This document shows positions 9,064-54,843 of a stretch of DNA of 64,000 bases, piece by piece; within the stretch, counting starts at the first letter, position 1; every line of letters begins with the position of its first letter. Source of the DNA: Staphylococcus phage S6. The notes under the pieces are model-generated. The model did no database searches. It was not told the origin of the DNA and saw only the letters and a program-made list of their open reading frames with translations. The stretch lies in sequence record LC680885.1. One strand, 5' to 3'. The position numbers and the translations under genes were made by a program.

Positions 9064-9573
9064 TTAAAGACCAAATTCTTTATCTAAAGATTCTTCTAAA
9101 GAACTAATATCTTCATTAGTTTGTTCTTCTTCTTTAACAGCTTCAAATAAGCTAAATAAAGCTTCTTCAACAGGACTTACAACTGAATCAATTTTATTTT
9201 CCATAGCTTCATTTAATTTAGTAGGTAATTTTTTGAATAGAGCAATGTATTTCTTTTCATTATTTCTAGCCCAAGCTTCTGCTTTTTTAGGACTTTGGAA
9301 AGCACATACTCGAATAAAACGATTTAAAATAGATGTTTTACCTTTAGCATCAATTACTCTGTAAGTAAATATAACTGTTCCATCTTCATGAGCATCTAAA
9401 GCAAATTCATTTTCATCAAATTTTTTACCTTTAGCGATAACTTTAGCTTTCTTTTTAGTAGCACGTGCTATGAATTTTTCCTCTGTATCTTTATCAGAAG
9501 GGTTTACCATTTTTCTTAATGTATCCTTCACATTAGCTTCATTTAATAATGTTTCTTGTAAAAAATCTTCCAT
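9064..9573 (-). CDS. hypothetical protein, paralog of the C-terminal domain of the 342-aa protein upstream
   Basis: 169 aa. Ends in SLEESLDKEFGL. Shares ...WARNNEKKYIALFKKLP... with ...WVQSNGNKFVSIFKKAP... of ORF 9615-10643. Confidence 0.55.
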   Translation of the reverse strand: MEDFLQETLLNEANVKDTLRKMVNPSDKDTEEKFIARATKKKAKVIAKGKKFDENEFALDAHEDGTVIFTYRVIDAKGKTSILNRFIRVCAFQSPKKAEAWARNNEKKYIALFKKLPTKLNEAMENKIDSVVSPVEEALFSLFEAVKEEEQTNEDISSLEESLDKEFGL

Positions 9574-10747: not shown

Positions 10748-13700
10748 TTAAAGCATATCTTTTACTTTACGTTTTAATTCTATTAAAGCTTTATTAGTTG
10801 CCAGCATTAAATAAATATCAGTAGTCATACGAGATACGATACTTAATGGAGAGAATATAGCTTCAATTTCTTCGTCAGGTCTATATTCTGCATAAGGAGA
10901 TTCATTAGGAGGAGTAACATCAGCAATAACTGTTTTACATGCACCGTAGAAACTGATCTTATCACCAATACTCATATCATCTTCATACTCTGTGAAGATT
11001 TCAATAAGCACTCCATCTACTTTCTCACCTTTAATTTTCTCACTATTAATTTTCTCTACAGCTGGAATATCTACATCTAATCCAGGTAATGTAGATTTAT
11101 TATCTTTAACTGCATTTTTGTATTCTCTATATTTACTTTTAGATTTATTAATATAACTATTAACTAATTTAGCTAATGTAGGAGACATATTTTCAATATC
11201 ATCATTATAATAGATATTTACTTTTTTAATTTCTCCAGTATATTTAGATCTAACAGCTCTATTAGAAATATCTTGTATTTCTTGTTCGAATTCAGAACCG
11301 ATTTTATCTAATAAAGAACCAATACCTTCATCATCAAATGAATTCTCAAATATCATTAATGGGTCTCCTGTACGTACATTTTGACCTTCTTTAACAATAT
11401 ATTGAATATTCGTACTAGAAGCTAAGTTGACTGTTTTCTTCATAGTAACTTTAGTTGACATTGCTTCAGACATACTATTAGAAATAATAGAACTATCTTC
11501 GTACGTGCCATAGCTTGAAGCAACTGCAACTTTAGATAATTTACCAGCAGCAAATTGAATATCATTATTACTGCCAGATCCTGCAAAGTAACTATCATTT
11601 TTAGCCAATACTTGTCCTTTATTAAATTTCTTACCTACTTCAAATTGTGGAGTAAGTTTATTATTTTGATAGAAACCACCATTAGAGTTTTTAGCAAGTT
11701 TTTCAGATATATCAATTACATCTTTATCTCCATTAATGTATTCAACAAGCATTAATCCTGTTTTCTCATTAACAGAAGTTACTTTCCCATCTTCTTTAGC
11801 TTTAAAAGCAAAAGTATCTGAAATTTGATAGGCTAAAGATTTATCTACACCAGATCCAACTAATGGACGGTCATTTGTTTTAGTAGCGATTAAATGTTTA
11901 GCTTGGGTACCTGTCATTCCTATTCTCGGACTATCTGCATGTCTACTAGTATATGGGTTCAATAATTCTAATGGAGTATATAAAGCTGTATCACTTACAT
12001 CTTTTTTACTACCATCAGTATATCCACGAGTAGATTTAATCTGTGTATCATATGAAAGTTGTCTAACTATACCTACTTTATTACTGTCAGGTGTGCTTAT
12101 TCCTAATATACCTTGCATACTTTCATCATAAGAACGAATATCAGGTTCATATGATTGTTCAGAGTTACGTCCAGCAGGACCTTTAAATGTAACAGAAGTC
12201 ATCTTATCTATTTCTAAGTTAGGGTTTAAATCAGATACTTCATCTACTGTAGGTTGTTCCATAATAGTTTTAATTAATTGATCTTGTTTAACTGAAATAT
12301 TCTTAGGATTTTTATTATTATAAGAATCTGAATATTCTTTATAAGCATTTGCCATCATTTTATACAATAATGCGTTAATTTGCTCTGGTCCACGTACACG
12401 ATAAATTCCCATATCATTATGATCTCTAGCCGATACATCTTCTAACATCGTATTAGCTAATAGTAATAATTCAACCATATTATCAGGAAGTTTTAAATCT
12501 CTTAATACTTCTTTAGTAATAGGATCCATTGCTAAATCCATAGTATTTTTAATACCTTTACCAACATTACGACTGTAGAATTTATCATTGAAATATTCTA
12601 AGTAAGGTGTTTCAGTTTCAAAATCACTGAAATTGTATTGTGAAGTAGGTAATACAGTTAATCCAGACATTAATAAATCAAATCTTAATTTATCAGTAGA
12701 GTATATTAAATAACCGTCTTGGAATTTAATCTTATTCTTTTTATCATGAATGCTAATTCTTTCATTCTCAGTAGTAAATTTATAATCAACTTCATAAAGA
12801 TCAAGAATATTAGTTAAACCTTTATAGAAACCTAATAATAGAATTGTAGGTACTAGTTTATTAGTAATTTTAACACGTGAAAATGCCATCGTCTTATTAG
12901 ATTGAATATTCTTACTGAATTTCTTATCAATAACTCCAAAGTCAACTTCATTATCTAGTTTATCAATAATGTAATCAAATATATTTACTTCCATAGATTT
13001 AATATTAGATTTACTACATTCATACATAACAGATTCTGTTTTATCTGCTAATATTAATTTAGATTTATTAATATTATAACCAATAGGGAAATATTTATCT
13101 TGATCATAATCAATCTTAGATAAACTAGCACTATCAGAAATCATACCTAATAAACTTCTTTGGTTGAATTCAAGTACATTAGTACCATCTTGGAAATTTA
13201 ATATATTTCTAGATAAACTATTATAGATAACTGAAGTTACATATTTATTATTGATTAAAGAAGCATTACCCTTTTTAACAGATAAGTTAGATTTATTTTC
13301 AATATAATCTATAACTTGATCATCTTCAATAACTTTCTTAATCCATTCAGTTTCAGCATTTTCTTTATAACCGAATTTTTCTATAATGAATTTATTATAG
13401 TTAGTTGTAATCCAAACAGTATCAGGTTTATATTTAACGATTGGCCACATCATTAATTGTTTAGTTAATACTTTTTTACCGCCATTAAGTTTCATATATT
13501 TGCCGTCAATAACTTTAGGAACATCAAATTTAACATTATGAGTTAAACCATCTGGACTTCTAAATTGGACTTTAACTGTATTTTTTAATGACTGACTATC
13601 TGAATTATCTTCAATATTCATTTTATTAATAAATACCGGAATATCTTCATTGTCATTAAAGCTTTTCATTATATCAATAAAGTCTTTATTAAATGTTTTT

Positions 13701-15001
13701 TGCATATAAGAGATATCAAAATCATTAGAAGCAATGTTATTAATAGTCTCTTCATTGATATTATTAATATTTTCATTAATTTCTCTATCGATTAATTTAT
13801 CTTCAGAAAAACTAAAATCTTCTAAATCATTAAGGTATTCATCTTGTTTCTTAGATAAAGCTAATATCTTTTTAGTATTTTTAAGAGCTTCATCACCAAT
13901 GCTAGATTTATTTTTAATATTTCTTTTAATTGATTTAAATGAATCATTCTTGTCTAATACATCTGAATATAAAGTTTCTGTATCAATATCAATTAAATCT
14001 TTATTATCATTTAATTCTTTTTCAATTATCATAGCTATATTATATTCATCATCAACATCCATTTCAGTATTGTCTAATGATCTAATATAACTTATTGTAG
14101 AATCTATTTTATTAGATATTTTTTCTAACTGTTCATCATTTTCATATTCAACTTCATCATTCTGAGCTTCGATAGGATCAATTGTTCCTACATTATCAAA
14201 TGCTTTCTTTTTAATTACTCCATCTACAGCTTCAGTATTATCATCATCTTCAACTTTACTAATTTCATCAGTATCCAATGCTTGTGTATTAGTGTCAATG
14301 ATTCTTCTTAATCTTTGTCTAAGTCTCATATTAAGTTTATTATAATCTTTGTAATCAAATTTAAACATTATTCCATTATCTAATGAGACAAATAATAAAT
14401 CAACATTTTGATTTTCACCATGAGGTAATTCTTCTTGATTCTTAATCATCATGAATAAGCTTGACATGAAATCTTTTGTATTAGGTCTAATAGCTTGTTG
14501 AGAAGGTTTATTATATCCATCAACATTAATTACATAAAGTAAATTATTATAATCTTCTGTATTATTTAAAGAGTTAAAAGTTGATTTAATTGAATTTAAT
14601 ACTGTATTAAAGTTTTTAGTCATTAATGATTTATCTTCTAAATCAATAAATTTAGTTGAATCAACAATATAGTTTCTACCTTTAAATAATTTCTCATTTC
14701 TTTCAACTCTATACTGTTTATAAGATTTAGATTTAATTTCTTTTTGATAATCTGTTATATTCGTTAATAATCTAGTTCTTCTATTTTGAGTTCTATACAA
14801 TCTTGGTGTATAGATATTCTTGAAATTCTGATGATATAATAATCCACTATTTAAGAAATCAGTAAATGAATTTTCTTTAAAACCTTTATAAATAACTAAC
14901 TGGTCTTTTTTCTTATCTTTGATTTCTTCATCAATAGCTTTAATTTTATATCCAGATATTGAATAGAATTTAAGATTTTTTAATCTATTAAGATATTTCA
15001 A
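10748..15001 (-). CDS. multisubunit RNA polymerase beta-like subunit (non-canonical, phiKZ/AR9-type split RNAP), carrying conserved regions D-H
   Basis: 1417 aa. GPAGRNSE...ISTPDSNKVGIVRQLS aligns to bacterial beta GPGGL...ETPEGPNIGLINSLS. ADSPRIGMTGTQAKHLI aligns to ANRALMGANMQRQAVP. SSYGTYEDS aligns to GYNFEDS. GDKISFYGACKTVIA...PYAEYRPDEEIEAIFSPLSIVSRM aligns to GDKMAGRHGNKGVIS...[22 protein letters not shown]. No GEME region I after this point. About 350 aa of extra N-terminal sequence. Confidence 0.7.
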   Translation of the reverse strand: MKYLNRLKNLKFYSISGYKIKAIDEEIKDKKKDQLVIYKGFKENSFTDFLNSGLLYHQNFKNIYTPRLYRTQNRRTRLLTNITDYQKEIKSKSYKQYRVERNEKLFKGRNYIVDSTKFIDLEDKSLMTKNFNTVLNSIKSTFNSLNNTEDYNNLLYVINVDGYNKPSQQAIRPNTKDFMSSLFMMIKNQEELPHGENQNVDLLFVSLDNGIMFKFDYKDYNKLNMRLRQRLRRIIDTNTQALDTDEISKVEDDDNTEAVDGVIKKKAFDNVGTIDPIEAQNDEVEYENDEQLEKISNKIDSTISYIRSLDNTEMDVDDEYNIAMIIEKELNDNKDLIDIDTETLYSDVLDKNDSFKSIKRNIKNKSSIGDEALKNTKKILALSKKQDEYLNDLEDFSFSEDKLIDREINENINNINEETINNIASNDFDISYMQKTFNKDFIDIMKSFNDNEDIPVFINKMNIEDNSDSQSLKNTVKVQFRSPDGLTHNVKFDVPKVIDGKYMKLNGGKKVLTKQLMMWPIVKYKPDTVWITTNYNKFIIEKFGYKENAETEWIKKVIEDDQVIDYIENKSNLSVKKGNASLINNKYVTSVIYNSLSRNILNFQDGTNVLEFNQRSLLGMISDSASLSKIDYDQDKYFPIGYNINKSKLILADKTESVMYECSKSNIKSMEVNIFDYIIDKLDNEVDFGVIDKKFSKNIQSNKTMAFSRVKITNKLVPTILLLGFYKGLTNILDLYEVDYKFTTENERISIHDKKNKIKFQDGYLIYSTDKLRFDLLMSGLTVLPTSQYNFSDFETETPYLEYFNDKFYSRNVGKGIKNTMDLAMDPITKEVLRDLKLPDNMVELLLLANTMLEDVSARDHNDMGIYRVRGPEQINALLYKMMANAYKEYSDSYNNKNPKNISVKQDQLIKTIMEQPTVDEVSDLNPNLEIDKMTSVTFKGPAGRNSEQSYEPDIRSYDESMQGILGISTPDSNKVGIVRQLSYDTQIKSTRGYTDGSKKDVSDTALYTPLELLNPYTSRHADSPRIGMTGTQAKHLIATKTNDRPLVGSGVDKSLAYQISDTFAFKAKEDGKVTSVNEKTGLMLVEYINGDKDVIDISEKLAKNSNGGFYQNNKLTPQFEVGKKFNKGQVLAKNDSYFAGSGSNNDIQFAAGKLSKVAVASSYGTYEDSSIISNSMSEAMSTKVTMKKTVNLASSTNIQYIVKEGQNVRTGDPLMIFENSFDDEGIGSLLDKIGSEFEQEIQDISNRAVRSKYTGEIKKVNIYYNDDIENMSPTLAKLVNSYINKSKSKYREYKNAVKDNKSTLPGLDVDIPAVEKINSEKIKGEKVDGVLIEIFTEYEDDMSIGDKISFYGACKTVIADVTPPNESPYAEYRPDEEIEAIFSPLSIVSRMTTDIYLMLATNKALIELKRKVKDML

Positions 15002-15461
15002 TTATGCCATTCCTTTCCGTATTTAATTTTATTGATTAATATATTTATATTACTTTTATTTTATAATATTATTCAATAAATTTCCTATATACAATAGTTT
15101 TGATTACTATCATTATGTATTTTAATTGGATTTATAAAAATAAAATAACGAACTATGTGAGTTATTTTTAAATACATTTTTATGAAATAAAAATGTGTAC
15201 TATCCCCTCATAATATTTTAATTTATATAAATATACTATAAGAATAGTATATTTATTATTATAATATTTTATTATAATATAATTATAATATTCCGGACAC
15301 TTTCAAATTTTTTATCACATAATGGTACAAATTTATAATTTTTTAAATAATTAATATAAAAATATTTATTAACTTCATACATATTGTTTAATTATATAAA
15401 AATTATAAAATACTCAGTAACATCTAAATATCAATAAAATAATGAAAGAAGTGAAAATAAA
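15002..15461. promoter_or_regulatory. AT-rich divergent intergenic region between the RNAP beta-like gene (minus) and the beta-prime-like gene (plus); presumed divergent promoters
   Basis: 460 bp with no ORF, over 85% AT, containing repeated attataat-type tracts. Genes diverge on both sides. Confidence 0.4.
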
Positions 15462-16688
15462 TTGGCTAATATGAATTATGAAAATAAAACACTTAATGAA
15501 AAAGAAGTATCGACATTATTAAGTGTTGGTAAAGATGACATTACATTAGACAAGTTAAAAGAATTATTTGCTTTTAGACAAAATACAGAACCAATGTATA
15601 ATCCAACGGATAAATTTACATTAAAGAAAGATCTAGTCTATAATAAAAAAGATGAAAAAACTACTGTAGGTAGATATATATTTAATAAATTTATTTTAGA
15701 TAATAAAATTGGACCGATTATAGGCTATATGAATCGTGATATGGGCGGTTCTGGAGTAGGTAAACTTCAATCTGATTTATCAAATTTATTACTTAATGAT
15801 ATTATTACTACACAAGAAATGTCAAATTATATCGATAAATTACAATGGTTAGGTTTCTCTATAGCCAGTTTTATTAATTCTAGTCTAACTACTACAATGA
15901 TGACTGCTACTGAAAAAGTTAAACAGAAAAAAGAAGAGTTATTAGTTAAATATGAAAAAGCATTGAATACTCCTGGAGAGGAATTAAATGCAATATCAGT
16001 TATTGAAAAAGAATTAATCAATTTAAGTAAAGAAGAATTAAAAGGTTTAGCTGATTTAGATATTTATGATAGTGGTTCACGTGGTTCATTCGGCAATAAC
16101 TATAAATTAACTGCATTAATTCGTGGAGCAAATAAAAACTTTGCTGATCCAAGTAAAATTAGAATTGCTAAAAGCTCACTAGCTGAAGGAATTGATCCTA
16201 ATGAACTTTATATGTTTGGAGATATTATGACTGCAGGTTCAGCTGGACGTGCACTAGGTACTCAAGAAGGAGGGTATCAGGCTAAGCAACTAATGTCGGC
16301 CTTCCAAACAACTGTTTTAGATAAAAAAGGTTCTGACTGTAGAACAAATCATTTCCTTAAATTAATATTAGATAAATCAAACGCATCATTAATGATGTAT
16401 AGATATTTTAAAGATAATAACGCAAGATCAGGTCAATTAGTTTTATTAACTCCTGAAAATGTAGATGATTACATGGGTAGAGTTTTAGAATTTAGAAGTC
16501 CTATGTATTGTGCAAGTGAAGATATTTGTAGTAAATGTGCAGGAGAATTACCATATAAATTAGGAATTGAAAATATTGGTCTATTAGTTAACCAAGTTGC
16601 TCAAGCAATCGTAACAAGTTCAATGAAATCTTTCCATGATATGACGATTAAACAAAATGAAATAGATATAGAAAGTTATATAGAATAA
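15462..16688 (+). CDS. multisubunit RNA polymerase beta-prime-like fragment (regions F-G, trigger-loop region), non-canonical split subunit
   Basis: 408 aa. KTTVGRYIF aligns to beta-prime DTTVGRAIL. IYDSGSRGS aligns to MMADSGARGS. LAEGIDPNELYMFGDIMTAGSAGRALGTQEGGYQAKQLMSAFQTTVLDKKGSDCRT aligns to [54 protein letters not shown]. The start may be TTG at 15462 or ATG at 15471. Confidence 0.65.
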   Translation: MANMNYENKTLNEKEVSTLLSVGKDDITLDKLKELFAFRQNTEPMYNPTDKFTLKKDLVYNKKDEKTTVGRYIFNKFILDNKIGPIIGYMNRDMGGSGVGKLQSDLSNLLLNDIITTQEMSNYIDKLQWLGFSIASFINSSLTTTMMTATEKVKQKKEELLVKYEKALNTPGEELNAISVIEKELINLSKEELKGLADLDIYDSGSRGSFGNNYKLTALIRGANKNFADPSKIRIAKSSLAEGIDPNELYMFGDIMTAGSAGRALGTQEGGYQAKQLMSAFQTTVLDKKGSDCRTNHFLKLILDKSNASLMMYRYFKDNNARSGQLVLLTPENVDDYMGRVLEFRSPMYCASEDICSKCAGELPYKLGIENIGLLVNQVAQAIVTSSMKSFHDMTIKQNEIDIESYIE

Positions 16689-16826
16689 CATAGATAGGAT
16701 AACAATCATTAAATTGATTGTTATCCTTATTTTATTGGATTAAATCGTTCTTTAAATTTATATTATAATTATGAGGTGAATGATGTGTATTAATGTGATA
16801 TACTTATAATTATAAAAATAAATTTA

Positions 16827-18920
16827 ATGGAGATGAAATGGATAATGTTAGGTAAAGAAATAATGAGAAGATCTGAAATAATTTACGATGATACGGATAT
16901 AAAAACTGTTTTAAATTTAGATCCGGATAAAGATTACATAAATGAAGAAGAGGATATCGAATATATCTGTCCTAAACATGGTAAACAAAAAAGAAAAATA
17001 AAACAACATTTAGAAAAGAAAGGTTGTTTCGAGTGTCAATACGATAATAAGTCTAAAAAGACTAAAGGTAAAGATTTATTAGGAGAGTTTTACAAAAGAT
17101 TTGGAGAAGATGTTTTTGATTATCCAGATATAGAAGAAGATCGTGTATATTCATCTAGAGAAAAAATAAAGATAGTTTGTTTTAAACATGGAGAGTTCAC
17201 TAGACAAATTAGAGAACATAATACAAAAGCTAAAATATGTGATAAATGTAAATTAGAGGATGGAGGAAAAGATTTTAAAAAGAAACAATTTAAAGAAAGA
17301 TTGAGAAATGAAAATTATGAAATGTATAAGATTACCGATTTTTCTGAGACTGTATTTGAAGGGTTAACTAATTTTATGTATGTTAGATGTAAAAAACATG
17401 ATACGATTAACAAAATACAACCTAGATCATTACTAAGTAAGAATAGTAATGGGTGTTCAAAATGTAGAAGTGAAAAACTATTAAAAAGTAGAAGATCTAA
17501 TAACAAGGTATATAACGTGGAAGATATTTTTAACATATATAAACAAAAAGGAAATCTTTTAAATACTGCGACTAAATATCTTGAAAATTTAAATCTCGAA
17601 CAAAGAAAAGAGTTATTCTTAATGATATCCAAACATAATTTTGGAAATAAGTATGACTATTCTTTAATAGAAAAAGAAAAAAATAATTTTAAATCTAGAG
17701 ATAAAGTAACACTAATATGTAAAGAACATAATGTCGAATTTAAACAAAATATATCACACCACTATAAAGGTAGGTTAGGTTGTGATAAGTGTAAAAAGGA
17801 TAATGTGTCTAAAAGTATATCTGACTCATACAGATTTTCTAAAAGAACAGATATAAAACCTGAAGAATTAATAAAAGAAGTGGATAATGAAAATTTCAAA
17901 GATAATGAGATAAGAAAAATAGTGAGATTAATGAATTTTGAAGATAAAGGAAAATATTACAGATTATTAGGGAAAAAGATTAAGGGAGATAAATATAACT
18001 ATGATAAATTAGTGTATAACGGTGATAGTGTTCAGGTAACTATAACATGTAAAAAACATGGAGATTTTAAACAGGTAATATACGATCACTTTTTCCAAGA
18101 TCATAATTGTAATAAATGTTCAAAGATCGTATCCAAACAAGAACTTAAATTAAGTAATGATTTGGAAAAATATTTTACAGTTAAAAATTCTTTAAGAAGA
18201 ATATTTGAGGATAAAAGAAAAGAAATTGATATATTTATCAAAGATATTAATTTAGGTATAGAGATAAATGGTCTAAGATGGCATTCAAATGATATAAAAA
18301 AGGAGGATGAAAATAATTTTGCAAGATACCATCAATTTAGTAAAATGAATGAATCTGAATGTTTAGGTATAAAATTATTAAACTTCTATGACGATGAAAT
18401 AAATATAAAGAAAAATGAAATTTCTTATTCTAAAATAATGAAAGAAATTTTATTATTTAATAATTCCTTTAATATTAAAAATATAGATTTAAAAGATTTA
18501 GAGATGAAAAAGATATCTTATAATTTCATAAAGAAATTTTATAAGAAACATTCACTAGAATTCTTTAATGAAGAAGATAAAAATTATAGAGGAATATTCT
18601 ATAAAGGTTATATAGTTTCCGTATTCTCATTTAATAATAAGAACGAATGTCATAACTATAGCACGAATTACAATTTAAATGAAGATATTGATTTAATATT
18701 AGATGCTTACCCTAATACCATTTTTAATATTAGATCAGATTCTTATAATAGATATAAATTTCAAGATTATGGGTTCATTACAATAAATAAAACTCTACCG
18801 CAATATAGAAATTTCAATAAAAAAGGTTTAACTAAAAATAGATATAAAAGATTAGAAAAGAGGGATACTAATAATCCTAATAGAATTTATGATTGTGGTA
18901 GAACTATCATGATTTACTAA
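16827..18920 (+). CDS. homing-endonuclease-like protein with five tandem CxxH...CxxC zinc modules and C-terminal Vsr/DUF559-like PD-(D/E)xK nuclease domain
   Basis: 697 aa. Modules ICPKHG...GCFECQ, VCFKHG...ICDKCK, RCKKHD...GCSKCR, ICKEHN...GCDKCK, TCKKHG...NCNKCS. C-terminus IDIFIKDINLGIEINGLRWHS...ECLGIKLLNFYDDEI resembles Vsr (FVVDEYRCVIFTHGCFWHH...ELGWRVLIVWECAL). The start may be the ATG at 16845. Confidence 0.55.
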   Translation: MEMKWIMLGKEIMRRSEIIYDDTDIKTVLNLDPDKDYINEEEDIEYICPKHGKQKRKIKQHLEKKGCFECQYDNKSKKTKGKDLLGEFYKRFGEDVFDYPDIEEDRVYSSREKIKIVCFKHGEFTRQIREHNTKAKICDKCKLEDGGKDFKKKQFKERLRNENYEMYKITDFSETVFEGLTNFMYVRCKKHDTINKIQPRSLLSKNSNGCSKCRSEKLLKSRRSNNKVYNVEDIFNIYKQKGNLLNTATKYLENLNLEQRKELFLMISKHNFGNKYDYSLIEKEKNNFKSRDKVTLICKEHNVEFKQNISHHYKGRLGCDKCKKDNVSKSISDSYRFSKRTDIKPEELIKEVDNENFKDNEIRKIVRLMNFEDKGKYYRLLGKKIKGDKYNYDKLVYNGDSVQVTITCKKHGDFKQVIYDHFFQDHNCNKCSKIVSKQELKLSNDLEKYFTVKNSLRRIFEDKRKEIDIFIKDINLGIEINGLRWHSNDIKKEDENNFARYHQFSKMNESECLGIKLLNFYDDEINIKKNEISYSKIMKEILLFNNSFNIKNIDLKDLEMKKISYNFIKKFYKKHSLEFFNEEDKNYRGIFYKGYIVSVFSFNNKNECHNYSTNYNLNEDIDLILDAYPNTIFNIRSDSYNRYKFQDYGFITINKTLPQYRNFNKKGLTKNRYKRLEKRDTNNPNRIYDCGRTIMIY

Positions 18921-19160: not shown

Positions 19161-19233
19161 TGTCCCATAGCTCAACGGTAGAGCGATCGGCTGTTAACCG
19201 GTTTGTTGAAAGTTCGAATCTTTCTGGGACAGC
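19161..19233 (+). tRNA. tRNA-Asn (anticodon GTT)
   Basis: Cloverleaf: acceptor TGTCCCA/TGGGACA, U8, D-arm GCTC-AACGGTA-GAGC with GG, anticodon stem ATCGG/CCGGT, loop CTGTTAA, T-arm GAAAG-TTCGAAT-CTTTC, discriminator G. No encoded CCA. Confidence 0.8.
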
Positions 19234-34549: not shown

Positions 34550-34625
34550 TTTATTAAATATATATTATATAAATGATAAATAATACTTATTTATCATAAT
34601 TATTATTTAAGGAGAGTGCCTGATA

Positions 34626-36359
34626 TTGGATAAAGTTAAAGAATTAGAGTACAAAGAGGATTTAGATTTAAAAAAGATTGATGAATTAGTTAATAATGAC
34701 GTGGAAGTACCCCTATTATCTAGTAATGTCAATAAGCTTAAAAGAGTCTCTGGTAATTTTGAATTAACTAATGAATACATTAATTCTAAAGACTTAGATA
34801 CACTTGAAAGAAAAAATAAAAATGGTAAAATTGAATTGGAGTACATACAGAGAACAGATATTCTACCATTAGTTAAATTTATTGAAAGTGAAAAGAATGA
34901 TACTATATTTATAGATTTCAATAAGATATTAGAAACTGATAATCGTAAAGTACCTAAGGATGAAGAGTTTGATAATATATTTACTATTCAAATTAAACAA
35001 AGATCTTACAAGAGTATTTTAGATTATATTGTAAATGATATGAATTTTATAGTTAATGAGATTCCTCACATAATGATTAAAGGTGCTACTATATTAAGTA
35101 AGATAGCTAAATTAAGAGAGAATTATAAAGAAGAAGATTTCTTCAGAGATATTCAGAATATTATTGAAGATGAAGATTTAAGAAATGTTATTAGAAATAT
35201 TGTTGATAATAACTATACAATTAATTTAGATCAAACTAATGCTGAAGCTATGTTACAAAGTAAGAAAGTTATTAAGAGAGATTTACAAGTAACTGACCAA
35301 GTAAATAAATCATTCTTATCTACAGCTGTAATGCAAAGATTTATTATTCCGTTTATTAGTCAATATTATGTAACTACCAATAAGTATCATTGTGAAAATT
35401 CTGATGCAGATAAGGAAAGAACTAAAAATGGTTACTTTAAAGCATTTAATTATTGTATGTGTATTTCTTCATTCGATTATAATGTAAGTAATAATAATAA
35501 ACTTTATAAAATTGTAGAACCTAAAGTAATCAAAACAAAATACAATGATAGAGTTATCTGGAGATTCTTAGATTTACGTTCAATTGACCCTGACACTGTT
35601 ATTAATAAAATAATGGATAAAATCATTAGACAAATTGTATGTAAATTATTAGTAGATACTTCTGCAGTATCTTACTTTACGTCTGTTATTAAATTCTCAA
35701 TCGATTATGAATTTCAGTACAAATATCCAATTAAGTTTAGATCAATACGTTTATCTACAGATGATGACGATGATGAAGATAGCTTCGATAAATTCCAAAT
35801 GAATAACTTCCATAAAGTTAATGAACGTTTAGATTTAGCTAATAAAATCACTATTGATAGATTTATTAATGAACGTTTAGAAGAATTAAATATTAGTGAT
35901 GATTACATTAATCGTTTATATGATAAATTTGATTATATTAATGACTTACAATCTCATTTAATTAAAGTTTATTTTGCTGAATACTTTAACGTTAATACAA
36001 ATGATAGAAAGAGCATTGTTTCATTACTGGCTATTATGTCTAAAGAACTTATTGATAATAATATGGAAACTTTAGGAAAAATAGTAGCAAGTAAAGTTGT
36101 TTCAGGTACAAAAGCTAAAAATGTAGGTAAATTATCATTAGACGTAATTGCAGATAAATATTATATTGCTGCTTGGGATAAATATAGATTTATCAATGAT
36201 ATTACTGAAAAAGATAACTTTATCTTACGTATAGCATTAGTAAATGGATATTCATTTAACTTCACTCCTGAAGATAAAGAAGAAGATGAAGAAGTTATTG
36301 CTGATATTGATAAGAAATACTTTATCTCTGAAGTATCACAATTTATTTCTCAATACTAA
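34626..36359 (+). CDS. hypothetical protein
   Basis: 577 aa. TTG start with AGGAG at -10. Confidence 0.55.
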   Translation: MDKVKELEYKEDLDLKKIDELVNNDVEVPLLSSNVNKLKRVSGNFELTNEYINSKDLDTLERKNKNGKIELEYIQRTDILPLVKFIESEKNDTIFIDFNKILETDNRKVPKDEEFDNIFTIQIKQRSYKSILDYIVNDMNFIVNEIPHIMIKGATILSKIAKLRENYKEEDFFRDIQNIIEDEDLRNVIRNIVDNNYTINLDQTNAEAMLQSKKVIKRDLQVTDQVNKSFLSTAVMQRFIIPFISQYYVTTNKYHCENSDADKERTKNGYFKAFNYCMCISSFDYNVSNNNKLYKIVEPKVIKTKYNDRVIWRFLDLRSIDPDTVINKIMDKIIRQIVCKLLVDTSAVSYFTSVIKFSIDYEFQYKYPIKFRSIRLSTDDDDDEDSFDKFQMNNFHKVNERLDLANKITIDRFINERLEELNISDDYINRLYDKFDYINDLQSHLIKVYFAEYFNVNTNDRKSIVSLLAIMSKELIDNNMETLGKIVASKVVSGTKAKNVGKLSLDVIADKYYIAAWDKYRFINDITEKDNFILRIALVNGYSFNFTPEDKEEDEEVIADIDKKYFISEVSQFISQY

Positions 36360-43483: not shown

Positions 43484-43983
43484 TTTATGAGTGAGTTATT
43501 TTTGAATACCTATCATATTCGAGAAGTAATTCTTTATTTATAATTAGATAGTATATGTTCATTTATAAAGTTGTCTACTCCATAAAAATGCCCTTTATCA
43601 TCTATTTCTTTTATTCTATTCTCCAAATCTTTAATTCTTCTTTCTAAATAATCTTCATCTTTATTCAATTTTTGAATCTCTCCCCATTTATATTACTACT
43701 ATTTAATATATGACATAAATATGTGTGAACGGACTAGCCACCTTAAATATAATAGATATGACTGTTTTGATTATTGACCTAATGTCATTTGGTAATCTTT
43801 TTATTGTTTAACTCACTCTGTTCACATTTTGTTATTTTATACTTCCACTCATTCTAGTATAGGGGGATCTAAAACGAATCGGCATATTTATATATCTTAG
43901 TAGAATATAGTGTATTAATGAGAAGTTAATTTCTTAACTTCTCACCTTTATAATATATATTTAAAAATTATTTACAAAAAAAA

Positions 43984-50700: not shown

Positions 50701-50733
50701 TCCCCCTAATACTAAATTAATAGTATTAGGGGA
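50701..50733. terminator. bidirectional terminator hairpin TCCCCCTAATACTA/TAGTATTAGGGGA
   Basis: 13/14-bp inverted repeat between convergent genes with A-run before and T-run after. Confidence 0.65.
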
Positions 50734-54519: not shown

Positions 54520-54843
54520 CTCCTATAAATTAGTATTTTATTATATTTATATATTAATTCACATTTCAAAATTTCTTAACCAAAATTTTTTAAAATTCAC
54601 ACATAATAATATAATATTAGGGGTTAGGGGTTAAGAATTAAAAATATATAAATATCAATAATTACTTTAATATAATATATATTTAATATATAAATTCATT
54701 TTTAATAAATATATTTATTAAAAATAATATTAATAAAAAATTAATTAATAAATATTAATGAAATTTATACATGTATAAGAAAATAATGAAAACTAATAAA
54801 AAATGACTATAACAATTAAATATTAAAATAAAAGACAGAAAAG
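54520..54843. promoter_or_regulatory. extremely AT-rich (about 90% AT) divergent intergenic region; candidate bidirectional promoter cluster or origin-like region
   Basis: About 320 bp without an ORF between divergent gene blocks. Contains tatatattt/aatatta iterations and a GGGGTTAGGGGTTAAG element. Confidence 0.35.

Follow-up and report, generated by a model that had tools for sequence, protein, structure and literature searches.

The open reading frame (ORF) at positions 15462 to 16688 of the analyzed stretch of Staphylococcus phage S6 DNA (64,000 nucleotides of record LC680885.1, hereafter the window) is the ortholog of AR9 gp264. Its product is a piece of the virion RNA polymerase (vRNAP), namely the "middle" fragment of beta-prime, and not a subunit of the non-virion RNA polymerase (nvRNAP). 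The phage belongs to the AR9/PBS1 lineage and is a Staphylococcus jumbo phage similar to PALS_2 and DC4. Since the orthologs are late genes and virion proteins, neither the gene nor the three-way split of beta-prime is new, and such a gene is usual in this phage group. The new and unexpected item at the locus is a conserved structured element, DNA or RNA, between the polymerase genes, whose possible roles are taken up below. Identity as vRNAP beta-prime middle, combined with late, divergent promoters for the nvRNAP, is in our judgment very probably the correct explanation of the locus.

The 408-aa ORF encodes the middle fragment of virion RNA polymerase beta-prime

The gene is one of a divergent pair that is separated by a very AT-rich intergenic region, termed the hub.

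10748-15001, minus strand: vRNAP beta-like subunit gene, 1417 aa, uninterrupted; divergent partner of the beta-prime middle gene
15002-15461: hub, 460 bp, 14.3% GC
15462-16688, plus strand: vRNAP beta-prime-like "middle" fragment gene, 408 aa, TTG start
16696-16727, plus strand: terminator-like hairpin, 13-bp stem and 6-nt loop followed by TATTTTATT; 8 nt past the stop codon of the 408-aa ORF
16827-18920: homing-endonuclease-like ORF, 138 bp past the 408-aa ORF
34626-36359, plus strand: homolog of AR9 gp226, the nvRNAP promoter-specificity subunit (PDB 7S01_A, E = 3.2e-40; PHROG 25005)

A sequence-only reading of this DNA had called the 408-aa ORF beta-prime-like, divergent from a beta-like gene across 460 bp of AT-rich DNA, and both parts of that description are borne out. 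It had also proposed a check against the RpoC domains of Pfam: RNA_pol_Rpb1_4 and RNA_pol_Rpb1_5 (PF05000/PF04998) give no match to the ORF even at an E value of ≤1, and a Pfam scan of the ORF and its neighbors returned no RpoC domain. The relationship to RpoC was therefore shown with PHROGs, PDB family profiles, and fold. The ORF matches PHROG 2962 (E = 1.5e-75), phmmer against the PDB finds bacterial beta-prime (E = 1.7e-4), and a profile of the family aligns to beta-prime residues ~572 to 943 (E = 5e-16). An AlphaFold model of the protein (pLDDT of 81.6) is matched by Foldseek to bacterial beta-prime and to the AR9 nvRNAP beta-prime C chain (E of about 1e-12, TM of about 0.6). In the phmmer search of the PDB, the AR9 nvRNAP chains give no direct match.

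Among the 305 homologs of the protein, nearly all are 393 to 425 aa long, and their alignment has 21 invariant columns. The length of ~400 aa and the same two ends are kept in more than 100 of them, as expected of an intact gene and not of a pseudogene. The protein is 99.8% identical to its counterparts in PALS_2 and DC4, and its best match in AR9 is gp264, which has the same ends and is 46% identical across 98% of the length. The annotation of AR9 gp264 is that of a virion RNAP subunit, and it also appears in the literature as "beta' subunit, middle-terminus"; the Machias ortholog carries the annotation "viral RNA polymerase beta-prime subunit, mid-domain". PALS2_228, the non-virion paralog, matches only distantly (E = 2.5e-6). 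MarsHill gp162, Machias gp171, DC4_00068, PALS2_249, and SA1 ORF222 are 75 to 99.8% identical to the 408-aa protein, and these five phages share the divergent arrangement with the vRNAP beta gene. The 1417-aa product of that gene matches PHROGs 14872 and 3148 (E < 1e-189), with weak PDB matches to beta, and its counterparts in MarsHill and Machias are annotated as "viral RNA polymerase beta subunit".

Domain limits and the split of beta-prime

Within the 408-aa protein, we recognize a funnel/TTVGR segment, the bridge helix (residues ~246 to 281), a Cys-rich segment (C350, C356, and C359), and the N-terminal trigger helix with the catalytic histidine (H392). The start of the ORF had been placed "almost exactly" at KTTVGRYIF, which proves to be too far downstream: the motif spans residues 66 to 74, after a conserved and confidently modeled N-terminal part, and is itself ~180 residues ahead of the bridge helix. 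Likewise, the string GSAGRALGTQEGGYQAKQLMSAFQTTVL...DCRT, taken before for the trigger loop (region G), aligns with the bridge helix ([29 protein letters not shown]..DCGT) and thus belongs to region F; in the AlphaFold model, this helix is 36 residues long (246 to 281). The N-terminal arm of the trigger loop lies at residues ~372 to 392 (LLVNQVAQAIVTSSMKSFHD, aligned with IGEPGTQLTMRTFHTGG). The C terminus follows 16 residues past the trigger-loop histidine. The protein does stop before region H, as had been noticed.

The rest of the subunit is encoded elsewhere, in agreement with the earlier view that no N-terminal part lies nearby and that the catalytic subunit is distributed over distant genes. 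A DxDGD motif is absent from all six frames of the whole 64-kb window, and PHROG scans of 34 window ORFs returned no other RNAP gene except the gp226 homolog. In PALS_2, the vRNAP beta-prime N-terminal gene (GADFDGD) lies at 187314-188825, ~49 kb from the ortholog of the 408-aa ORF. A phmmer search for a third piece, using the non-virion beta-prime C protein against all PALS_2 ORFs, matched the middle fragment only. A split of vRNAP beta-prime over three genes has been described for this phage group (Korn et al.; Sokolova et al. 2020). By this scheme, three polypeptides (N-terminal, middle, and C-terminal) would make up vRNAP beta-prime here. The middle piece would contribute the first trigger helix, which bears the catalytic histidine, together with the bridge helix and the funnel segment; the DxDGD active-site piece would be encoded at a distance of ~49 kb, with the final conserved region on another small gene.

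The two splits can be compared with those of other polymerases. The AR9 nvRNAP beta-prime C subunit gp154 (PDB 7S00/7S01 chain D) has the same fold (Foldseek E = 4e-12, TM of about 0.56 to 0.6), and its counterpart PALS2_228 is paralogous to the 408-aa protein from the bridge helix to the Cys-rich segment (E = 2.5e-6). With a length of ~630 aa, gp154 and PALS2_228 also include the second trigger helix and the last conserved region; their vRNAP counterpart ends after the first trigger helix, with the remainder on a separate small protein. At the other end, the RpoC1/RpoC2 split of cyanobacteria and plastids falls near the N-terminal limit of the 408-aa ORF, and in RpoC2 chains 8gzg_Z, 8syi_Z, and 8qma_B, the alignment with the family profile sets in close to the chain start. 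This coincidence of split sites was pointed out before (Sokolova et al. 2020). RpoC2 reaches the C terminus of beta-prime, whereas here a second split occurs at the tip of the trigger loop. In bacteria, the trigger-loop tip is a site of lineage-specific insertions such as SI3.

An ORF that ends inside the trigger loop might also be a remnant, either a pseudogene piece of a longer rpoC or a gene cut in two by insertion of the homing-endonuclease gene at 16827-18920, beyond which the rest of beta-prime would lie. The closeness of that endonuclease-like ORF would fit such an origin, as would the same arrangement of gp265 in AR9 and the mobile insertions found inside this gene in relatives: Machias, AH12, and LY01 carry ~345 bp between codons 266 and 273, in the bridge helix, and PB50 has a shorter insertion at about the same place. 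None of these insertions was recognized by Rfam as a group I or group II intron. The beta gene, too, is interrupted in PALS_2, MarsHill, and Machias, by an intron with an ORF, whereas both genes are uninterrupted here. A remnant is nonetheless very improbable. MarsHill, SA1, BpSp, and LPJP1 do not have the endonuclease gene, yet their proteins keep the same C terminus and length, and the same end point recurs in hundreds of homologs. The terminator-like hairpin stands directly after the stop codon, and downstream, in place of the rest of beta-prime, come only a tRNA, another endonuclease-like ORF, and unrelated genes. Finally, a three-piece split of this subunit is documented (Sokolova et al. 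2020).

Predicted late promoters in the hub

Two motifs resembling the late promoters of AR9 face outward from the hub, one toward each polymerase gene. By the AR9-type definition used here, a late promoter has AACA at positions -11 to -8, six further bases, T, and A or G at +1, and lies 20 to 60 nt upstream of a late gene. The type also includes template-strand deoxyuridine at -11/-10 and a gp226-type specificity subunit encoded by the phage.

15419-15430, plus strand: late (nvRNAP-type) promoter of the beta-prime middle gene, AACA-TCTAAA-TA; predicted start A15430, 32 nt before the TTG
15444-15454, plus strand: ribosome-binding site GAAAGAAGTGA, 7 nt before the TTG at 15462; invariant in 7 phages
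15088-15099, minus strand: probable late-promoter variant of the beta gene, AACT-ATTGTA-TA; predicted start 15088, 87-nt untranslated region (UTR)

The motif at 15419-15430 is the single exact occurrence of AACA-N6-T[AG] in the hub. In 7 phages, its TAACA and TAT do not vary, in contrast to the diverging flanks; BpSp, LPJP1, and L055 have the motif as well. The mapped AR9 promoter P264 has the same AACA-N6-TA motif and the same 32-nt UTR. Across the window, the AACA motif occurs at -60 to -20 of 11 of the 44 genes, compared to 2.3 in shuffled sequences, and the genes that bear it encode lysins and virion structural proteins. For this clade, for which deoxyuridine DNA is presumed, a MEME search had found no late motif (Korn et al.). 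That AACA-N6-TA is recognizable and enriched before late genes goes beyond the cited papers and provides a testable promoter map for the clade.

For the beta gene, AAC[T/A]-N6-TAT is found at the homologous place in five lineages, with a variable N6; the first four bases are AACT in PALS2, SA1, L055, and L054 and AACA in Machias/PB50/AH12. Start sites at AACT-N6-TA have been mapped in AR9 (g057, g202, and g246), which suggests that the variant may be used here too. This assignment is less certain than that of the beta-prime middle promoter, because T replaces the A at position -8, where substitutions in the AR9 late promoter abolished transcription in vitro. In addition, AACT-N6-TA is not enriched upstream of the window genes (3 compared to 2.7 expected). 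Host-type promoters were also considered for the locus and rejected, with σ70-like matches in 14900-16900 no higher than in shuffles (17 compared to 19.6 expected).

The phage encodes a gp226-type specificity subunit (the ORF at 34626-36359), whose MarsHill counterpart is annotated as "non-viral RNA polymerase subunit". We infer that the nvRNAP carrying this subunit transcribes both genes from two divergent late promoters, AACA-N6-TA with a start at 15430 driving the beta-prime middle gene and AACT-N6-TA with a start at 15088 driving the beta gene. The beta-prime middle transcript would be monocistronic, ending at the hairpin at 16696-16727.

Late expression of both polymerase genes is to be expected, since the vRNAP is a virion component. 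For this phage, virion location and late timing are extrapolated from orthologs in the literature. In AR9, the abundance of the g264 transcript is 1.7, 52, and 596 at 5, 20, and 40 min, respectively, and its late start site has been mapped, which gives a UTR of 32 nt. In SA1, the orthologs of both genes, ORF221 and ORF222 (as assigned with an inferred +1 shift in numbering), belong to the late RNA-seq class and yielded virion peptides in mass spectrometry, although the identification of the beta-prime middle fragment in virions is weak (score of 22, 11% coverage). The DC4 beta protein (DC4_00067) was found in virions.

The hub lacks an early promoter

If the two genes instead encoded nvRNAP subunits, as the sequence-only reading conditionally proposed, the hub would hold early promoters read by the packaged vRNAP and might reveal the consensus of that enzyme. 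The early consensus of the clade is, however, already known (TATATTAT core; Korn et al.). The AR9-type form is AAATATATATTAT-N6-G, and in the window it reads TTAAAT[A/T]TATATTAT-N6-G, with eight good sites at 16759, 19732, 22582, 34561, 37622, 43957, 45606, and 54679; the one at 34561 precedes the gp226 homolog. The extreme AT richness of the hub resembles that of early promoters, and a single degenerate TATATTAT core occurs there on the minus strand at 15281. This copy has the wrong flanks, without the upstream AAAT of the eight good sites and with A instead of G at +1, and the Machias clade does not retain it, while in AR9 one mismatch inactivates an early promoter. The hub (15002-15461) thus contains no proper match to the early consensus. 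Moreover, the non-virion set of PALS_2 (PALS2_067, 088, 089, and 228) is encoded away from this locus, and its SA1 orthologs are middle genes, whereas the orthologs of the pair studied here are virion proteins and late genes. On these grounds the early-promoter idea fails, and there is hardly any chance that the genes belong to the nvRNAP. The early consensus is obvious elsewhere in the window, whereas the hub has late-type motifs in its place. With late-type motifs and no early match, the hub cannot reveal the promoter consensus of the virion enzyme.

A conserved structured element between the predicted start sites

Between the two predicted start sites, the hub contains a conserved, multi-hairpin element.

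15172-15296, no strand assigned: structured element, ~125 nt
15172-15198: hairpin A
15206-15223 paired with 15281-15296: outer stem, enclosing hairpins B and C
15227-15256: hairpin B
15257-15279: hairpin C

CCCC (15204-15207) and ATATTCCGG are invariant in the element. Across three clades, the stems differ in sequence, but where they lie and how they are arranged with respect to CCCC is identical. Pairing is kept in 99.7% of 333 cells, compared to 36 to 51% when the partners are slid, and compensatory double changes occur in 11 of the 48 pairs; the observed values were reached in 0 of 500 shuffles. Between LY01 and PALS2, for instance, a C-G pair inside hairpin B is replaced by T-A. The element, which this covariation supports strongly, goes beyond the cited papers. 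As shown by blastn, each genome carries one copy, and a covariance model detected no second copy in the PALS_2, AR9, BpSp, or LPJP1 loci. Rfam 15 has no match at an E value of ≤5 in region 14950-15520, and its only match at gathering score in the window is one tRNA.

Very AT-rich DNA forms palindromes readily, and the hub hairpins could be chance products without function. The element has 14% GC with stems of nearly pure A/T, and its RNA folds are equally good on both strands, between which a single U-G wobble on the plus strand gives too little basis for a choice. Nor was the full element recovered farther afield: the hubs of the more distant relatives L054 and L055 have AT hairpins, and that of L054 also a CCCC...TTTCAATTTTTTAT frame, but no significant full-length match, and a pattern scan of IMG/VR gave 36 loci, of which 0 were confirmed by the covariance model. 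Still, we consider chance unlikely. The window contains 17 perfect hairpins whose stems reach 10 bp or more, whereas shuffles have about 1.5, and in the hub three of the 17 stand side by side; the DNA-fold z-score of the element is -5.7. Chance would also have to produce the same architecture around CCCC in three clades with different stems, the compensatory changes with their pairing values beyond all shuffles, and the double change in hairpin B of LY01.

The element may be a new cis-acting structure, specific to Staphylococcus jumbo phages and composed of one hairpin and a closed three-way unit outside both predicted transcripts; we regard this as possible rather than probable. It could be a cruciform or single-strand-forming DNA that helps the nvRNAP, which reads the template strand, to open, or co-regulate, the two promoters. 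Alternatively, it could mark the DNA for another transaction, or could be a small non-coding RNA with an unrecognized promoter. If the element acts on DNA, it would bear on how promoters are found by a polymerase that recognizes single-stranded template DNA.

A replication origin at the hub was considered as well, since the cumulative GC skew of the window reaches its minimum at ~15 kb. It was rejected because this is a local dip in the PALS_2 genome, whose whole skew curve rises almost monotonically, following gene orientation.

The surroundings of the gene in AR9 are similar on one side only. In both phages, it is followed by a gene for a Hef-like homing endonuclease, which has an early promoter of its own. 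Upstream, the divergent neighbor in AR9 is the small early gene g263 and not the beta gene as here, so that the pairing of beta with beta-prime middle and the structured hub element occur in the Staphylococcus clade only and are absent from AR9. The hub also contains small ORFs of 23 to 36 aa, which span regions with indels in relatives.

A beta-prime middle fragment

The gene to the right of the 460-bp divergent spacer (the hub, 15002-15461) was compared with sequence and structure databases.

15462-16688, + strand: beta-prime middle ORF, 408 aa, TTG start, GAAAGAAGTGA just 5' of the start

The ORF product is beta-prime-like. It matches PHROG 2962 "RNA polymerase beta subunit" (E=1.5e-75) and, by phmmer, bacterial beta-prime chains (E=1.7e-4). 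A profile built from 25 members of its family aligns with approximately residues 572-943 of a 1188-aa bacterial beta-prime (E=5e-16), and Foldseek searches with its AlphaFold model (pLDDT 81.6) recovered beta-prime chains of bacteria and, from the AR9 non-virion polymerase, the C-terminal beta-prime chain (E ~1e-12, TM ~0.6). The Pfam scan proposed as a check on RpoC domains returned no match, even at E<=1; the family profile and the fold do match.

The sequence-only reading of this ORF as a beta-prime fragment was therefore largely right on homology and fold, but residue-level alignments contradict its motif labels. The GSAGRALGTQEGGYQAKQLMSAFQTTVL..DCRT string, taken for the trigger loop (region G), is aligned by both phmmer and the profile with a bacterial string ending DCGT, the bridge helix of bacterial RNAP, and forms a 36-residue helix (246-281) in the AlphaFold model. 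The first trigger-loop helix spans residues ~372-392, where the alignment of MKSFHD with MRTFHTGG identifies H392 as the catalytic His. The chain continues for just 16 more residues, poorly modelled, so the protein ends at the trigger-loop tip, within region G and, as had been proposed, before region H. KTTVGRYIF, which was thought to mark almost exactly the ORF start, occupies residues 66-74, behind a conserved N-terminal part modelled with confidence. The ORF is no pseudogene remnant, since homologs keep its length and ends: 305 were scored, and nearly all among the matches listed are 393-425 aa with shared ends. A terminator-like hairpin (16696-16727) lies 3' of the stop codon.

A search of all frames across the whole 64-kb window found no DxDGD motif, in agreement with the suggestion that the catalytic piece lies on a distant gene. 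PALS_2 has two DxDGD genes, PALS2_089 (GADYDGD) and PALS2_198 (GADFDGD), the latter ~49 kb from the ortholog of the ORF. The SA1 ortholog of PALS2_089 is a middle gene, and that of PALS2_198 is late and virion-associated.

Both hub-flanking genes belong to the virion polymerase

The earlier reading considered the possibility that these are the non-virion RNAP genes; gp264 orthology, SA1 and DC4 virion data, and late timing point to the virion set instead. The best AR9 match of the ORF is gp264 (46% identity, 98% of length), annotated as a virion RNAP subunit and listed by the AR9 transcriptome tables as "beta' subunit, middle-terminus"; for the Machias ortholog the annotation reads "viral RNA polymerase beta-prime subunit, mid-domain". 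In MarsHill-like phages, Korn et al. report five genes for the virion polymerase, beta-prime N, middle, and C among them. According to Sokolova et al. (2020), the first beta-prime split falls at the same place as the cyanobacterial RpoC1/RpoC2 split, and the C-terminal-most region is carried by a small virion protein of its own, originally identified as SPN3US gp244. Virion mass spectrometry yielded peptides for SA1 ORF221 (beta) and ORF222 (beta-prime middle), orthologs of both hub genes, and the DC4 beta protein was detected in virions. SA1 RNA-seq classed "ORF222 and ORF223" as late; the RNase HI and lysin genes show that this paper numbers one above the genome paper, so the two late genes are those for beta and beta-prime middle. 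The AR9 g264 transcript likewise rises (1.7, 52, and 596 at 5, 20, and 40 min).

Both hub-flanking genes thus belong to the virion polymerase set, and the non-virion set is encoded elsewhere. The ORF itself is an already known representative of an established family, the virion RNAP beta-prime middle fragments. Besides the two hub-flanking genes, the window has a single RNAP gene, 34626-36359, a homolog of gp226, the promoter-specificity subunit of the AR9 non-virion enzyme (7S01_A, E=3.2e-40). It encodes 577 aa versus 464 aa in AR9, and its match begins at approximately residue 115, indicating an N-terminal extension of ~85-115 residues.

The N-terminal ~500 residues of the beta-like protein (10748-15001, - strand) form a long Asn/Asp/Lys-rich stretch without Pfam match. 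An HD domain is reported fused to the vRNAP (virion RNAP) beta-like subunit of Bacillus relatives; the Pfam scan detected none in that of the window. The DC4 paper names UFVDC4_00065, ortholog of 9064-9573 (- strand), "Sigma70 factor"; the window ORF has no PHROG match.

The hub carries predicted late promoters

The hub (460 bp, 14.3% GC) is the longest divergent intergenic region of the window and carries predicted late promoters for the non-virion enzyme.

15419-15430, + strand: predicted late promoter of the beta-prime middle gene, AACA-TCTAAA-TA, the sole exact late motif in the hub
15099-15088, - strand: candidate late promoter of the beta gene, AACT-ATTGTA-TA
16759, 19732, 22582, 34561, + strand: early promoters, TTAAAT[A/T]TATATTAT-N6-G
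37622, 43957, 45606, 54679, - strand: early promoters, same consensus

The exact motif lies 32 nt 5' of the start codon; the experimentally mapped AR9 P264 (AACA-ATAGAA-TA) also has a 32-nt UTR. In a seven-phage alignment its TAACA and TAT are invariant, and the six spacer bases and flanks vary. BpSp, LPJP1, and one metagenomic relative also have this motif before their orthologs. Within the window, 11 of 44 genes have it at -60 to -20 (shuffles: mean 2.3, maximum 8, n=2000), namely genes for lysins, virion structural proteins, and a late endonuclease.

No exact motif is present in the hub for the beta gene, and AACT-ATTGTA-TA is its probable late promoter. Five lineages retain AAC[T/A]-N6-TAT at the equivalent position with variable N6, Machias, PB50, and AH12 having AACA instead of AACT. 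AR9 start sites map to AACT-N6-TA at g057, g202, and g246; substitutions at -8 of the late motif abolished in vitro transcription. The AACT variant is not enriched within the window, and sigma-70-like matches showed no enrichment.

The early, virion-polymerase consensus has eight clear sites in the window and agrees with the AR9 consensus AAATATATATTAT-N6-G and with the published MarsHill core TATATTAT. The suggestion that the hub could reveal this enzyme's promoter, whose consensus is already published, fails: the hub holds late motifs and just one degenerate early core (15281, - strand), whose flanks do not fit, whose start position is A, and which is not retained in the Machias clade.

The predicted transcripts from early promoters 34561 and 43957 start within perfect 11-bp hairpins (34573-34597; 43919-43944). 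A second divergent AT-rich hub (54520-54843; 324 bp, 12% GC) contains early promoter 54679 (- strand), a late motif lying 22 nt 5' of gene 54844 (+ strand), and a perfect 12-bp hairpin (54698-54725).

A conserved multi-hairpin element between the start sites

A stretch of 341 bp separates the two predicted start sites, and midway between them three perfect hairpins adjoin one another in the hub element.

15172-15296: hub element, ~125-nt multi-hairpin stretch

The whole window contains 17 perfect hairpins of this class, versus ~1.5 in shuffles. Across three clades, hairpin positions relative to an invariant CCCC are identical and stem sequences differ. RNAalifold predicts one hairpin of 12 bp together with an outer stem enclosing two hairpins, with compensatory changes in 11 of 48 pairs; 99.7% of cells are paired, versus 36-51% with partners slid, and none of 500 shuffles reached the observed values.

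Fold z-scores are -5.7 as DNA and ~-4.1 as RNA of either strand. An Rfam search gave no match, and no conserved promoter able to transcribe the element was found, which makes action at the DNA level no less likely than action as an RNA. A replication origin at the hub is unsupported by whole-genome GC skew. The element is single-copy per genome and complete only in the nine sequenced Staphylococcus jumbo phages; in two metagenomic relatives that are more distant the resemblance is only partial, and an IMG/VR search found no relatives. It is the sole part left unexplained by existing descriptions.

Relatives, mobile elements, and other hairpins

The window has a GC content of 25%. Over 14702-15800 it matches two jumbo phages from the AR9/PBS1 lineage, PALS_2 at 100% identity and vB_SauM-UFV_DC4 at 99.8%. 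It differs from both records, lacking the ORF-containing insertion within the PALS_2 beta gene and the additional downstream endonuclease gene of DC4.

In Machias, LY01, and AH12 the beta-prime middle gene is interrupted by ~345 bp inserted between codons 266 and 273. PB50 has a shorter insertion in roughly that position, and the gene is uninterrupted in the window.

L005 3917-4261, L007 4140-4488, L008 3917-4262: insertions in loci of relatives, matching window ~16260-16277

The ~345-bp insertions sit in bridge-helix coding sequence, at invariant G271-Y272, and Rfam assigned none of the relatives' insertions to group I or II introns.

Close behind the beta-prime middle gene, two large homing-endonuclease-like ORFs (16827-18920 and 19794-21743), each preceded by its own early promoter and combining zinc-ribbon repeats with a DUF559/Vsr-like nuclease, flank a tRNA gene (19161-19232). 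Endonuclease-ORF presence varies among PALS_2, DC4, MarsHill, and the window, marking a mobile-element hotspot. Three similar perfect 12-bp hairpins with 6-nt AT loops (21750-21779, 26689-26718, and 50703-50732; [A/C]CCCTAA...TTAGGG[T/G]), each between convergent genes, look like a family of bidirectional terminators.
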